Translations under genes and position numbers: made by a program | Assembly (NCBI GenBank): GCA_011390245.1 | Contig: JAABSR010000060.1 | Location: 1-10,147 of the forward strand | DNA from: Campylobacterales bacterium | GTDB taxonomy: Bacteria; Campylobacterota; Campylobacteria; Campylobacterales; JAABSR01 | Direction: 5' to 3' | DNA length: 10,147 nt | Notes under the pieces: model-generated | What the model was told of the DNA's origin: nothing | Database searches by the model: none | Seen by the model: only the letters and a program-made list of their open reading frames with translations | In this document: in pieces, positions 3-4,844 of the stretch | Position numbering within the stretch: the stretch's first letter is position 1 | Layout of the letters: every line of letters begins with the position of its first letter

Positions 3-290
3 GGAAAAACCAAAGGCTTGATGTATATGATAAATCCAAAAATATTTTTATCTATAAAGCATGGAATGAAGCCTAGCCTAAAAACGATGGAAGAGCCACA
101 TCTCAAAGCACTTATAAAAGAGGATTTGAAACTTCACCCCAAAAGCAGAATCTCTGAAATTCACAGTAGGATGGATGATATAGATATTAGCTATTTAAGA
201 AAAGTTGTCTATAAGATGGTTGAAAATGGTGAGCTTTCAAGAGAGGGTGAAAAGAAAAATATGGTCTATTTTTTGGCAAATAAAAAATAA
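3..290 (+). CDS. 3' part of a gene running in from upstream. It encodes a C-terminal winged-helix DNA-binding domain typical of AlbA_2/HATPase_c_4 (RecG-C-terminal-like) putative transcriptional regulators
   Basis: Frame 3 is open from base 3, with no stop before the first Met at 18. The tail ...HPKSRISEIHSRMDDIDISYLRKVVYKMVENGELSREGEKKNMVYFL fits a wHTH pattern (helix, recognition helix, G..R.G...Y.L wing). Stop at 288-290. Confidence 0.4.
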   Translation, partial: GKTKGLMYMINPKIFLSIKHGMKPSLKTMEEPHLKALIKEDLKLHPKSRISEIHSRMDDIDISYLRKVVYKMVENGELSREGEKKNMVYFLANKK

Positions 291-453: not shown

Positions 454-609
454 ATGACAATAGACGAAAAAGACTCTTCAATGCGATACGAAAACAGCAC
501 TATTGAATATAAAATCTCAAAAAAAGCTATTGGCAAAAGTGCAGAGTTGAAAGATTTGGCTAAGACTTTTGTGTGTTTGGCAAATAAATCAAATTTTCAC
601 GAAGCTTAG
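454..609 (+). pseudogene. Truncated remnant (51 codons) of the N-terminal AlbA_2-type domain of a paralogous regulator gene
   Basis: The ORF product is MTIDEKDSSMRYENSTIEYKISKKAIGKSAELKDLAKTFVCLANKSNFHEA*. Its motifs E.STIEYK...L.KTFVCLAN match the start of AlbA_2 domains (E..lEfK ... vvAfaN-GG). The ORF ends immediately at the conserved ANxxGG position. It is bracketed by the direct repeat described below. Confidence 0.35.
576..605 (+). repeat. Copy B of the ~30-nt direct repeat. It lies at the truncation point of the AlbA_2 gene remnant
   Basis: See copy A. Copy B lies in-frame over the codons ...CLANKSNFHEA* of the remnant ORF. Confidence 0.6.
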
Positions 610-1547: not shown

Positions 1548-2741
1548 CTAGTGGATATAGTTTTTAGATGAAAGATAGTTATGTATTTGATTGTAAATGA
1601 TTGGATTGATATTATATTTTTGTTTTGGTTGAATTAGAAGCCCTTTTTCAAGCATTGGCATAAAAGTATTTCTACACTTATGATTTGACTCACTAGTCAC
1701 AAAAGAGTAATCATGTAAAGTCAGCCCATCATGGATGATTAAAGTCTGTAAAACAAAAAGAACCTCTATAGAAAGATTTTCAATAAAAGATTTATCAAGC
1801 TCATCGATCTGATTTAAGTAAATTTTATTATTTTCTATTTTTTTGATAGATCTAACCCAATATAACAAAGCAAGAGATATATTTCCGCTAGAAAGTTTAT
1901 AAAGCTGTTTGAAGAAATGCTCCTCTAGAGATTCTTGCTCTTTTTCATCGCTATCTTCTTGTAAAAATAGAACCTCAAGAGCTGCAGATTTGTTACGCTT
2001 ATGTATAGTCTCTTTTATATCTTCAAGCTTTAGTAGTTCTACATTAACTTCACTTGTAAAGTAATTTGATATAGAGATTGTTTTATCAAGATATTTCCAA
2101 GATTCTGGTGTAAAAGTACCAACCCAAAGAACTTTTTTAGAAGTATAAGATATAAGCTCAAAGAGTAGTTCTATGGCTTCAAAACCACCAACTTTTTTTA
2201 AAAACATGTGCTGCAAGTTTTCTAAAATTATAATTTTACTATTTTTACTATTGTTGAGATAGTTGATAAAATCTTTATTCGTACGCAAATCTTCTGTTTG
2301 AAGCAAAGAGTTGAAATATCTAAAATATTTCTCTTTTGTGTAGATTTTTTTATCTAGCTCTTCTCTTATGATCTCCATTTCTATATGAGTTTTTAGGAAA
2401 ATATTAAGCATTGATGTAACCCCTGCGCCTTTTTGGGCAACTATTGCACAGCTCACAAACCTATCTTTTTTCCAGTTCTCATAACTGTTTTTTAGTTTTT
2501 CAAGCTCTTTTTTTCTGTTGATGAAAAAATCTGTTTCACATGGGGTGAGTTCATAAAGTTTTTTATACTCATCTGGAAGTTGCTCAAAAGAGTTAGTGAC
2601 ATCTTGCATGAATTCGGAAATTTCAAAAGATATAGGTGTTGTTTTATCAACAACACCTAAAAATATTTTAAGTCTATTAAGTCTTTTTTTAAGGGATTTA
2701 AAAAGAGTATCATTTTTTGAATTCTCTCGTTTTTCAAGCAC
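1548..2741 (-). CDS. 397-aa encapsulin-operon protein with a P-loop NTPase-like (Arch_ATPase/AAA_16-like) fold signature but degenerate Walker A and B motifs. Predicted pseudo-ATPase
   Basis: FINRKKELEKLKNSYENWKKDRFVSCAIVAQKGAGVTSMLNIFL fits the F.gRe.EL..L ... hhhhG..G.GKTsLl pattern of Arch_ATPase/ORC-like NTPases. The Walker A is AQKGAGVTS (Lys replaced by Val). The putative Walker B is KIIILENLQ (hhhhDE changed to ILEN). GTG start at 2741, 17 nt after the encapsulin stop, with AAGG 10 nt upstream. No stop in 397 codons. Confidence 0.55.
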   Translation of the reverse strand: MLEKRENSKNDTLFKSLKKRLNRLKIFLGVVDKTTPISFEISEFMQDVTNSFEQLPDEYKKLYELTPCETDFFINRKKELEKLKNSYENWKKDRFVSCAIVAQKGAGVTSMLNIFLKTHIEMEIIREELDKKIYTKEKYFRYFNSLLQTEDLRTNKDFINYLNNSKNSKIIILENLQHMFLKKVGGFEAIELLFELISYTSKKVLWVGTFTPESWKYLDKTISISNYFTSEVNVELLKLEDIKETIHKRNKSAALEVLFLQEDSDEKEQESLEEHFFKQLYKLSSGNISLALLYWVRSIKKIENNKIYLNQIDELDKSFIENLSIEVLFVLQTLIIHDGLTLHDYSFVTSESNHKCRNTFMPMLEKGLLIQPKQKYNINPIIYNQIHNYLSSKNYIH

Positions 2742-2758: not shown

Positions 2759-3562
2759 TTACTTAAAGTTAAAAATAATAGCTGCTTCAGGACCTAAGAT
2801 TCTCAAAGCACATGTTTGAATCAAAAACAACTCTACGCTATCTTTGTTTATCTTTTCAAACCCAATTGAGACATCCAATCCACTACAAAACTCAAAATCT
2901 CCACCTCTTTGTGAAATAATCATCGCACTGTTGTCACCAATATCTTCACTAGCAACTATTTGATTTTCACCTAATATATCATCTAGCTTTGTTTTTAAGC
3001 TTATACCATCAAAAAACTCAGTGTAAAGCTTTGTCAATGTTGCACTTGAGACCACAAGTTTAAAGCCACCATCAACAAACTCATTGCGAAAAACTCCCAA
3101 GGATTTTGCAACGCTACTAAGAATATCTTTAGTAGATTTTACTTCCATACTCACGACATCTGGATGGTTTATGATTCCTGTGAAACTTGCTTCTTTAAGT
3201 CCTTGAAGTATCATGTTATTTTCTATAGTGGCAAACTCATTTGCAGCATTTGCAAACTCTTCATCATTAAAGTCTTCTATTCCTCTTTTGATGTGCTCAA
3301 TTGCTTCATTGCTGATTGTGAAAGTTTTTTTAATCTCTACCATTTTGATAGGCTCTCTTGTAGAGATTGTAAGACCTTTATCACTACTTACTTTTTTTAT
3401 TCTTTTTGTGAAAACTGCATCAGTTTCAAAGCTATAGTGATCTTTGAAATCAATAAGTGTTCTTAAGCTGAGCCTTTTTGACAAAAACTCAGACATTGTT
3501 TCATCTATCACATTCCAAACCGCACTTGAAAAAGGTGCACTTGTTCTATTGAGTATTTCCAT
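2759..3562 (-). CDS. Family 1 encapsulin shell protein (Linocin M18-like, HK97 fold)
   Basis: 267 aa, alignable along its full length to the T. maritima encapsulin from memory. Start MEILNRTSAPFS versus MEFLKRSFAPLT. C-terminal block SQRGGDFEFCSGLDVSIGFEKINKDSVELFLIQTCALRILGPEAAIIFNFK versus [50 protein letters not shown]. RBS aagga 8 nt upstream of the ATG. Confidence 0.9.
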   Translation of the reverse strand: MEILNRTSAPFSSAVWNVIDETMSEFLSKRLSLRTLIDFKDHYSFETDAVFTKRIKKVSSDKGLTISTREPIKMVEIKKTFTISNEAIEHIKRGIEDFNDEEFANAANEFATIENNMILQGLKEASFTGIINHPDVVSMEVKSTKDILSSVAKSLGVFRNEFVDGGFKLVVSSATLTKLYTEFFDGISLKTKLDDILGENQIVASEDIGDNSAMIISQRGGDFEFCSGLDVSIGFEKINKDSVELFLIQTCALRILGPEAAIIFNFK

Positions 3563-3573
3563 ATTTGTATCCT

Positions 3574-3939
3574 TTATTTCCTATTTTTTCCAATATTAAG
3601 AGTATTTGATGAACTAGAATCAGTAGACTCTTCTTCTCCCATCATCGCTTCTTCATTTCCTACGATATCTCCATCTTTAAACAAAAACTCTCTAAGCATC
3701 TTATCCCAAGTGGGAGAGTTTTTTCTAAGCCACTCTATCCCCATACAAGCATGCTCTATCTCTTCATCACGGTTATGTTCCATGATAGCCTTTGCTTCAG
3801 GGTCGCTTGCACACTCTGCTCTTTGATTGTACCAATCAATCGCTTCAAGCTCTTCCATGGTGCTTTGTATGATTCTATGGTAATCTTTTGCAAAATCTGA
3901 TAACTCTTTTGGATCTTCATGAAACCCTTCATGTGCCAT
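3574..3939 (-). CDS. Encapsulated ferritin-like cargo protein (EncFtn) with C-terminal encapsulin targeting peptide
   Basis: 121 aa. The ferritin-like ExxH di-iron motifs are MEELEAIDWY and HNRDEEIEHA. An acidic/Ser-rich linker is followed by the tail SSSSNTLNIGKNRK, which resembles Family-1 targeting peptides (..L.IGSLK). The gene sits 11 nt upstream of the shell gene. RBS aaggag. Confidence 0.85.
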   Translation of the reverse strand: MAHEGFHEDPKELSDFAKDYHRIIQSTMEELEAIDWYNQRAECASDPEAKAIMEHNRDEEIEHACMGIEWLRKNSPTWDKMLREFLFKDGDIVGNEEAMMGEEESTDSSSSNTLNIGKNRK

Positions 3940-4085
3940 ATCTTGCTCCTTGTTAAATTTTGGTATCCAAAGATAATATCCAATTTATAATTATGTTTGT
4001 ATTACTTCAATAAATTTGGTATTAAGTTTATAAAAGATATCTTATTCATGAGGCTTAGGCTTTAAAAATATTCAAAGGAGAAATC
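3940..4085. promoter_or_regulatory. Divergent promoter region shared by the encapsulin operon (minus) and the coiled-coil gene pair (plus). It holds AT-rich direct repeats and a Fur/PerR-like half-site
   Basis: 146 bp, with no ORF. aaatttt-ggtat (~3955-3966) recurs as aaattt-ggtat (~4012-4022). tttataattatgttt (~3985-3999) matches one half of the 7-1-7 TTATAAT-n-ATTATAA / TGATAAT-n-ATTATCA boxes. There are multiple TATAAT-like hexamers on both strands. Confidence 0.35.
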
Positions 4086-4376
4086 ATGGGAATGAAAGAA
4101 GCATATGAAAAAAAACTGCAAGCTCAGCTAGATGAGTGGGGTGCACAAATAGATACTCTAAAAGCAAAAGCAGATAAAGCTGAAGCAGATGTGCAACTTG
4201 AATATTATAAAGAGATAGAAGAGCTAAGAGCAATGCAAAATGAAGCAAACAAAAAAATTGTAGAGCTCAAAAATGCTAGCGATGATGCATGGGAAGATCT
4301 AAAAGCAGGCATGGATAGTGCTTGGGATTCTCTAAGTATTGCAGTAAAATCAGCAACTTCACGATTTAGTTCATAA
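4086..4376 (+). CDS. Small cytoplasmic coiled-coil protein (uncharacterized conserved family), paralog 1
   Basis: Strong RBS aaaggag 7 nt upstream. 96 aa, predicted all-helical, with heptad-rich EKKLQAQLDEWGAQIDTLKAKADKAEA. The C-terminal motif DDAWEDLKAGMDSAWDSLSIAV is shared with the next gene. Confidence 0.6.
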   Translation: MGMKEAYEKKLQAQLDEWGAQIDTLKAKADKAEADVQLEYYKEIEELRAMQNEANKKIVELKNASDDAWEDLKAGMDSAWDSLSIAVKSATSRFSS

Positions 4377-4382
4377 AGAGGG

Positions 4383-4844
4383 ATGCTGATGAAACTACAT
4401 ATATCTTCAGCTGTATTAGCAGCACTATTGGGAATGAGTACAATGGCTTTTGCAGATGGGCACAAGGGTTCAGCCTCTGCTCAAGATGTAAAAAAAGAGA
4501 CTAAAGAGCTACTTCAAACTATCAATTCATACGGTAGTGATAAAAAAGATGAAGTTCTAGAAAAATCTAAAAAAACTCTTGAAAAATTAGATTCTCAAAT
4601 TGATCAATTAGAATCCAAAGTTGATAATAATTGGGATGAAATGAGTAAAGAGGCAAGAAAAGAAGCTAGAGAAAATCTTAGAGATCTTAGAAAACAAAGA
4701 AATGAAGTCGCACAGTGGTATGGAAGCATGAAAAGTAGTTCTGCTGATGCTTGGGAACATGTAAAAAAAGGTTTTACAGACTCTTATAATGCACTTCAAA
4801 ATGCTTGGGAAAAAGCACAAAAAGAATTTGACGATAAGAAATAA
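4383..4844 (+). CDS. Secreted/periplasmic coiled-coil protein, paralog 2 of the upstream gene
   Basis: Signal peptide MLMKLHISSAVLAALLGMSTMAFA|DG. RBS agaggga. The shared motifs NNWDEMSKEARKEARENLRDLRKQRNE and ADAWEHVKKGFTDSYNALQNAWEKA align to paralog 1. It starts 6 nt after the paralog 1 stop. Confidence 0.65.
   Translation: MLMKLHISSAVLAALLGMSTMAFADGHKGSASAQDVKKETKELLQTINSYGSDKKDEVLEKSKKTLEKLDSQIDQLESKVDNNWDEMSKEARKEARENLRDLRKQRNEVAQWYGSMKSSSADAWEHVKKGFTDSYNALQNAWEKAQKEFDDKK

Follow-up and report, generated by a model that had tools for sequence, protein, structure and literature searches.

Genes for an encapsulated ferritin and a family-1 encapsulin shell form a conserved two-gene cassette in a low-GC Campylobacterota contig

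The stretch of DNA examined here, hereafter the window, is an entire 10,147-bp NCBI contig (JAABSR010000060.1) from a low-GC member of the Campylobacterota. It carries two consecutive open reading frames (ORFs) on the minus strand, the first coding for a 121-aa protein (the cargo) and the second for a 267-aa protein (the shell), separated by a spacer of exactly 11 nt (Table 1). The cargo protein is an encapsulated ferritin (EncFtn) that ends in a targeting-peptide-like tail, and the shell protein is a family-1 encapsulin with an HK97-type fold. Native systems are likewise ordered cargo first and encapsulin second (PMC7925596). A first-pass annotation, made from the sequence alone, had proposed that the two genes constitute the canonical two-gene EncFtn system; the ORF sizes, positions, spacing and gene order that it gave all agreed with our reading of the DNA, to which we add that both genes lie on the minus strand, a point it had omitted.

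The shell protein was assigned by profile searches, by comparison with sequences in the PDB and by structure prediction. It matched the Pfam profile PF04454 (Linocin_M18) with 174.4 bits (cut-off 24.3) over profile positions 1–251 of 253, and the NCBIfam equivalog NF041155 (encap_f1), entitled ‘family 1 encapsulin nanocompartment shell protein’, with 167.9 bits (cut-off 100) over positions 1–260 of 261, the profile E-value being 3e-51. Both scores lie above the curated cut-offs, and the protein is a single protomer of the HK97 type (a fold made up of A-domain, P-domain and E-loop) that lies within the expected length of ~265–290 aa, is covered by the profile over its whole length and has no extra fused domains. 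Among PDB sequences, residues 1–266 aligned to residues 1–265 of the Thermotoga maritima encapsulin (E ~2e-30) and residues 4–262 to Brevibacterium linens Linocin-M18 (E 8e-32), in line with the end-to-end alignment to encapsulins of this type that had been claimed at first pass; the Haliangium ochraceum, mycobacterial and other family-1 shells were also matched end to end. The legacy name Linocin_M18 of PF04454, together with the label ‘bacteriocin family protein’ carried by some homologues, is the sole support for reading the shell as a secreted bacteriocin. All solved members of the family are icosahedral shell proteins, the Pfam description of PF04454 itself reads ‘Encapsulating protein for peroxidase’, and no immunity or export genes were identified beside the shell gene, where the neighbours with family matches have housekeeping functions and the 397-aa ORF next to it matches no family. 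We therefore give the bacteriocin reading almost no credence.

An AlphaFold2 model of the shell protein, built from 50 homologues, reached a mean predicted local distance difference test score (pLDDT) of 91.9 and a predicted template modelling score of 0.85, and displayed the encapsulin variety of the HK97-type fold that had been expected. When this model was compared to the PDB with Foldseek, the top 50 matches were all encapsulins. Template modelling scores (TM) of 0.85–0.91 were obtained to the T. maritima, H. ochraceum, Mycobacterium tuberculosis and B. linens encapsulins over about 266–271 alignment columns, the highest (0.89–0.91) being those to T. maritima (7kq5) and H. ochraceum (7oe2, 7odw). 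Shells with triangulation numbers T=3 or T=4 (Myxococcus xanthus, Quasibacillus thermotolerans) ranked clearly below T=1 shells, and a 60-subunit T=1 particle is the most likely assembly judging from this ranking and from the length of the protomer.

The HK97 fold is common to encapsulins and phage capsids, so the 267-aa protein might in principle have been left by a prophage or a decayed phage as its major capsid protein, in which case the ferritin-like gene would be an unrelated neighbour. A match to the HK97-type phage major capsid model TIGR01554 was indeed observed, with a sub-threshold score of 15 bits (cut-off 27.5), compared to 168 bits for encap_f1. The PHROGs collection returned no family at E ≤ 1e-3, and the 10-kb contig contains no portal, protease, terminase or integrase genes, its neighbouring genes being instead MscS, DusB, Lnt, YajQ, CvpA and LysS. 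Encapsulins only were found among the top 50 fold matches, as described above, and the ferritin-like gene was linked to the shell gene in 13 of 13 other loci. Based on the PHROGs result, the sub-threshold capsid score and the housekeeping flanks in the 10 kb available, a phage-capsid origin was ruled out, and the probability that we leave to it is negligible.

We also considered whether the shell might bind flavin as the T. maritima encapsulin does. In that protein, W90 stacks the flavin and a W90E mutant lost it (PMC8610991). The corresponding column is occupied by Glu86 in the window shell and by Ser, Asp, Glu, Asn, Ala or Thr in 50 members of its clade, none of which has an aromatic residue there. 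Flavin binding of the T. maritima kind was discarded on this basis, and a flavin-mediated electron route is likewise unlikely. Since W90 is present in only 35% of the encapsulins loaded with ferritin-like proteins (FLPs) (PMC8610991), its absence here is not unusual.

The cargo protein was assigned in the same manner. It matched PF22277 (EncFtn-like) with 130 bits (cut-off 27) over positions 2–85 of 85 and TIGR04535 (‘encapsulin-associated ferritin-like protein’) with 142.7 bits (cut-off 125) over positions 1–112 of 114, again above both curated cut-offs and with a profile E-value of 3e-38. Its matches in the PDB were the EncFtn proteins of Rhodospirillum rubrum, H. ochraceum and Nitrosomonas europaea (E 1e-25 to 1e-27). 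More specifically, residues 6–95 aligned without gaps, at an offset of +2, to residues 8–97 of R. rubrum EncFtn (5da5) with ~50% identity. This alignment places the ferroxidase-centre residues E32, E62 and H65 of R. rubrum at E30, E60 and H63 of the cargo, and the entry-site residues E31, E34 and W38 at E29, E32 and W36; the R. rubrum numbering was confirmed by the PDB mutant entries E32A, E62A, H65A, E31A and E34A. Across 44 homologues E29, E30, W36, E60 and H63 were invariant and E32 was at least 90% conserved. The ExxH half-ferritin signature noted in the first-pass annotation is thereby located at E60-I-E-H63.

The AlphaFold2 model of the cargo contains helices at residues 15–43, 47–74 and 76–86, modelled with a pLDDT of 96–98, and reproduces the two-long-helix half-ferritin of R. 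rubrum EncFtn with its short C-terminal helix (root-mean-square deviation, rmsd, ~1.2 Å). Compared to the structures 5da5, 5l8b, 3k6c and 5n5f from R. rubrum, N. europaea and H. ochraceum, it gave rmsd values of 1.0–1.4 Å and target-normalised TM of 0.92–0.95. From the ~50% identity to R. rubrum EncFtn, the cargo would be expected to form a decamer of D5 symmetry and to possess ferroxidase activity.

Two residues past the iron ligand H63, in the motif EIEHACM, lies a cysteine (Cys65; 3745–3747, minus strand). This residue was at least 90% conserved in the 44 Campylobacterota-type EncFtn homologues and is replaced by alanine in R. rubrum and N. europaea.

The C-terminus of the cargo reads ...SSSNTLNIGKNRK and ends in TLNIGKNRK. 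FLP cargos are built from a structured domain of ~100 aa followed by a disordered C-terminus of 10–40 aa that ends in the targeting peptide (PMC11202242), and we took from the literature the criteria for a disordered C-terminal extension and for the minimal motif L-X-I(L)-X (PMC11202242 and PMC7925596). Residues 102–121 of the cargo were predicted to be disordered (pLDDT below 50). The linker at about residues 97–112 varied in sequence and length in two alignments, one of 9 and one of 44 homologues, next to a catalytic domain that was almost invariant. The tail beyond it was conserved among the 44 homologues as L-x-I-G-x-N-(K/R), with I116 invariant and L114, G117 and N119 at least 90% conserved, and at 12 further genomic loci the cargo ended in ...LNIG[KNS]N[KRS][KR]. 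The tail contains the minimal motif as L114-N-I116-G followed by basic residues. The full consensus given for FLPs, L(F)-X1-V(I)-X2-X3-L(I) with Gly, Thr or Ser as X1, is not matched by its L-N-I-G-K-N, which has Asn at X1 and at the final position. The earlier description of the tail as targeting-peptide-like is therefore upheld as regards its conservation, its L-x-I core and its basic residues, and is refined by the Asn found where the full consensus has Leu or Ile.

Targeting-peptide sequences are known to vary (PMC11202242), and the T. maritima tail DLGIRK likewise departs from the full FLP consensus and has no ‘GSL’ part. A more distant, outlying homologue (P0268) carries the classical tail LNIGSLKR, which indicates that the Asn form is the version of the canonical LxIGSLK peptide found in this lineage and does not exclude the protein from the EncFtn class. 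This conserved LNIGxNK variant could, speculatively, serve as an orthogonal loading tag in encapsulin engineering.

The departures at X1 and at the last position nevertheless bring up the alternative that the tail no longer binds the shell, so that EncFtn would be a free decamer and the shell would be empty or would hold another cargo. Short FLPs with no apparent targeting peptide do exist, such as N. europaea NE0167 (3k6c), and another cargo could be encoded beyond the 10-kb contig. Set against this, strong purifying selection acts on the tail whereas the linker drifts freely, a contrast not easily accounted for unless the tail binds a partner. Furthermore, the L-x-I anchors and C-terminal basic residues that have been kept are those of the interactions governing binding in T. 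maritima, where the native tail also does without ‘GSL’, and the tight pairing of cargo and shell genes is conserved. Lastly, EncFtn is the sole window ORF with a targeting-peptide-like tail; the one other match among the ORFs of the window was a spurious 56-aa overlapping frame, and an additional cargo within the window was ruled out accordingly. We regard loss of encapsulation as very improbable and keep the assignment of EncFtn as the cargo of the adjacent shell.

The cassette was then examined in related genomes. The cargo-then-shell pair, with a gap of 10–18 nt, was present in every locus examined, namely in 13 other Campylobacterota loci, and the spacers of related loci carry an equivalent ribosome-binding site of AGGA or AGGAG type; AAGGAG or AAAGGAG occupies the same position before the cargo gene in most of them. 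The full-length relatives recovered were all from Campylobacterota (Sulfurimonas, Arcobacteraceae and Helicobacteraceae metagenome-assembled genomes, MAGs), the closest shells being 84% identical in a Logan contig (L019) and 81% identical in a Campylobacterales MAG (L007). Several close homologues are named by NCBI as ‘family 1 encapsulin nanocompartment shell protein’ or ‘encapsulin-associated ferritin-like protein’. The EncFtn-encapsulin cassette is thus widespread in Campylobacterota of the Sulfurimonas and Arcobacter type. Its flanks differ in nearly all of the 13 other loci, with TenI and DJ-1 flanking it in L003/L004. Only L019 shares the neighbours seen in the window: a divergent pair on the opposite strand, EncFtn, the shell, an extra 157-aa ORF, an ATPase-like gene and MscS. 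Since the flanks differ and are shared with L019 alone, the EncFtn-shell pair is a self-contained two-gene unit.

Two of these neighbourhoods may be described further. In a Sulfurimonas sp. MAG (L001, GCA_041642615.1, 896–7138) the cassette sits within a [NiFe]-hydrogenase maturation (hyp) cluster in the order HypB-like, HypC, HypD, two other genes, EncFtn, shell, HypE and HypA, a placement in which a link between encapsulated iron and metallocentre assembly is possible. In Arcobacter sp. FWKO B (L005, CP041403, 3349–9099) dnaJ lies upstream, a convergent hemerythrin-domain gene directly downstream, and groEL-groES after it, so that the cassette is surrounded by a stress and oxygen-sensing neighbourhood. 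The cargo and shell of the window are 79% and 55% identical to those of Arcobacter sp. FWKO B, and 82% and 77% identical to those of the Sulfurimonas MAG. As the cargo is much more conserved than the shell between the same genome pairs, the ferroxidase is under tighter constraint.

Overall, we consider it highly probable that the pair is a canonical two-gene family-1 encapsulin operon of a Sulfurimonas-like Campylobacterota bacterium, as the first-pass annotation had proposed; the family assignments and models of both proteins and the recurrence of the same pair at the 13 other loci, mostly in different contexts, speak for it. Neither of the two outcomes named at first pass as refuting the reading, a lack of significant profile matches and a fold other than HK97, occurred. 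From homology to the systems of R. rubrum, H. ochraceum and T. maritima we infer the oligomeric states, the T number, the loading of the cargo, its ferroxidase activity and the mineralisation, and we propose the following mechanism. The cargo gene would give a 121-aa EncFtn, the two-helix monomers of which would pair into dimers resembling a four-helix bundle, each with a di-iron ferroxidase centre at its interface (E30, E60 and H63), and five such dimers would close into a D5 decamer ring. The disordered linker of ~11 residues would present TLNIGKNRK, the Leu and Ile of which would be anchored in a hydrophobic pocket that lies on the inside of the shell protomer, and the basic residues of which would contact an acidic patch. 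Translation of the shell would start from the separate ribosome-binding site that the 11-nt spacer provides, and the 267-aa HK97-fold protomers would self-assemble around the cargo, most likely into a T=1 particle of 60 subunits. Fe(II) would then pass through the shell pores, be oxidised by EncFtn and be held inside the shell as an Fe(III) mineral, with iron storage and protection from Fe(II) and oxidant toxicity as the outcome. The label of an iron-mineralising organelle, also used at first pass, would apply to the locus by the same homology.

Several points weigh against this interpretation. The T=1 assembly is drawn solely from the length of the protomer and from the order in which solved shells matched the monomer model. 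The tail has Asn both at X1 and at the final hydrophobic anchor, and since it departs in this way from the full consensus, we infer its binding to the shell rather than regard it as certain. Literature searches combining encapsulin with Sulfurimonas or Campylobacterota returned nothing relevant on expression, assembly or iron. Evidence that contradicts the operon reading was not found.

A further possibility is that the Campylobacterota pairs are a distinct sub-lineage in which the cargo-shell interface has been rewired around L-N-I-G-x-N-K, a polar Asn standing in for the usual last Leu/Ile anchor, and in which the ferroxidase is perhaps redox-gated through Cys65. Were this the case, loading or activity could follow the fluctuations of oxidant and sulfide met by sulfur-oxidising microaerophiles. 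This would fit the stress-gene neighbourhoods of the cassette (the sll1863-family pair here; hemerythrin, DnaJ and GroESL in Arcobacter), and the hyp-cluster cassette of the Sulfurimonas MAG would hint further at a role as iron donor in metallocentre assembly. We view this as an unlikely proposal. On our preferred reading as a canonical operon, the only departures from the canonical system are a lineage-specific variant of the targeting peptide and the highly conserved Cys near an iron ligand.

Table 1 Features of the encapsulin cassette and its surroundings in the window
Feature	Coordinates	Strand	Basis
EncFtn cargo gene, 121 aa	3574..3939	(-)	ORF; PF22277, TIGR04535, PDB EncFtn matches, AlphaFold2 model and Foldseek
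Catalytic half-ferritin domain, cargo residues 6–89	3673..3924	(-)	alignment to R. rubrum EncFtn, conservation, pLDDT 96–98
Ferroxidase-centre residues E30, E60, H63	3850-3852, 3760-3762, 3751-3753	(-)	alignment to R. rubrum
Entry-site residues E29, E32, W36	within 3673..3924	(-)	alignment to R. rubrum
Flexible variable linker, cargo residues ~102–112	3604..3636	(-)	pLDDT <50 from residue 102; variable alignment columns
Putative C-terminal targeting peptide TLNIGKNRK, cargo residues 113–121	3577..3603	(-)	conservation, L-x-I motif
Intergenic spacer, exactly 11 nt, AGGATACAAAT on the coding strand	3563..3573	(-)	read from sequence
Ribosome-binding site of the shell gene, AGGA, inside the spacer	3570-3573	(-)	read from sequence
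Gene for the family-1 encapsulin shell, 267 aa (coordinates include the stop codon); protomer of HK97-type fold, probable T=1 assembly	2759..3562	(-)	PF04454, NF041155, PDB, AlphaFold2, Foldseek
Ribosome-binding site of the cargo gene, AAGGAG, 6 nt before the cargo ATG	3946..3951	(-)	read from sequence
Putative -10 element GATATTAT	3973..3980	(-)	conserved with L019; inferred only
sll1863-family stress-response proteins, tandem pair	4086-4376 and 4383-4844	(+)	NF052504, 124.5 and 52.4 bits

Close to the cargo gene, GATATTAT was the sole block conserved between the window and L019. Its TATTAT (3973–3978) ends 33 nt before the cargo ATG, and several relatives have an extended -10 sequence, TGnTAC[TC]AT, 32–33 nt before theirs. 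A sigma-70 scan did not call the element, having found no -35 match; a role as promoter -10 is plausible from its position and conservation. A k-mer comparison of 13 upstream regions yielded no shared operator-like motif, only AT-rich low-complexity words. Three copies of TTGGTAT/TTGGATA (two direct, one inverted) were seen at 3956–4034 in the divergent intergenic region, partly overlapping the putative -10. As they are not conserved in L019, they are probably due to chance in AT-rich DNA, and a Fur/PerR-type operator was dropped in view of these two results.

Downstream of the shell gene, a terminator-like hairpin with an 11-bp stem (TAGGTGTTGTT...AACAACACCTA, 2633–2659) was called on either strand. 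It falls inside the conserved N-terminal coding region of the 397-aa ORF (LGVVDKTTPIS; LGVVDKxxPISFE in the family) and was not accepted as the operon terminator for this reason. As no credible terminator was found after the shell gene, read-through into the 397-aa gene is possible.

This 397-aa ORF (1548–2741, minus strand) has the same orientation as the shell gene and follows it after 17 nt. The copy in the window had no match in Pfam, NCBIfam, PHROGs or PADLOC. Its family consists of conserved ‘hypothetical/ATP-binding’ proteins (Suden_0109-like), some of which match PF13401 (AAA_22); it occurs throughout Sulfurimonas, with a 43% identical member in Cecembia lonarensis, by name a genus outside the Campylobacterota. 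The P-loop-like motif of the family, G-x-K-G-x-G-V/I-T/S-S, is missing the canonical Walker A lysine, so the protein may be a degenerate ATPase. The ORF was rejected as a third component of the system because it adjoins the cassette only in the window and in L019, where the 157-aa ORF lies between, and its family was not found beside the cassette in L001, L003/L004, L005 or L007. Its adjacency is synteny within one lineage.

On the other side, the tandem sll1863-family pair is transcribed divergently from the encapsulin operon, and the second protein has a hydrophobic, signal-peptide-like N-terminus. At the same position L019 has a divergent pair of ORFs, comparable in length (96 and 168 aa) and with no Pfam match on record, and a block AAGCCTAAGC upstream of the first sll1863-family gene (plus strand, about 4051–4064) is kept between the window and L019. 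The flanks of the cassette in the window comprise, in addition to these two stress proteins, an MscS-type channel, the ATPase-like protein, DusB, a SurA-like chaperone, Lnt, YajQ, CvpA and LysS. The 5' end of the window contains a 95-aa open frame (3–290, plus strand) that runs off the contig, with no family match in Pfam (searched as a 90-aa ORF, 18–290), NCBIfam, PHROGs or PADLOC, and a separate 51-aa ORF (454–609, plus strand) with no family match in Pfam; both may be gene fragments. A defence-system context was rejected, since PADLOC matched none of the three proteins searched (the shell, the 397-aa ORF and the 5' ORF). The GC content is flat along the window (~0.30–0.37), with no signature of horizontal transfer seen, and tRNA and Rfam scans of the window gave no matches.

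With this locus a well-studied class of bacterial protein organelles gains one more, as yet uncharacterised, member, and standard profiles already identify both of its genes. Our understanding of how encapsulins work is unchanged by it; of practical use is that the contig, the proteins of which are unnamed in the protein collection searched, can now be annotated correctly.

The closest known systems include annotated ones from the same phylum. Arcobacter sp. FWKO B has the same cassette, the same spacing and an LNIGxNK(R) tail, with the identities given above, but its flanks (DnaJ, hemerythrin, GroESL) differ from the sll1863-family pair, the ATPase-like ORF and MscS of the window. No experimental work on the Campylobacterota encapsulin loci annotated by NCBI was found in the literature on encapsulin with Sulfurimonas or Campylobacterota.

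The EncFtn/encapsulin pair of R. rubrum (Rru_A0973-Rru_A0974; PDB 5da5) has the same cargo-then-shell order, a cargo aligned without gaps to that of the window and identical to it at the ferroxidase-centre and entry-site residues, and a disordered C-terminus that likewise ends in a targeting peptide. It differs in the tail, SLGIGSLK(R) compared to TLNIGKNRK, which amounts to Gly replaced by Asn at X1 and Leu by Asn at the last anchor, in having Ala at the position of Cys65, and in its host, an alphaproteobacterium rather than a low-GC member of the Campylobacterota. The H. ochraceum encapsulin:EncFtn system (7oe2, 7odw, 5n5f) gave the highest TM for the shell model (0.90–0.91), and its EncFtn matches residues 1–111 of the cargo (E 1.5e-25). 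It pairs a T=1 shell with EncFtn decamers as cargo; its targeting peptide is SLGIGSLK, compared to TLNIGKNRK here, and its shell is ~25% identical to that of the window. Lastly, the T. maritima encapsulin with its ferritin-like cargo (3dkt, 7kq5) has a T=1-type protomer of equal length and was listed as the best fold match of the shell (TM 0.89). Its shell is only ~25% identical and has the flavin-stacking W90 in place of Glu86; its native peptide DLGIRK follows the same logic of L-x-I plus Lys as the LNIGK of the window.

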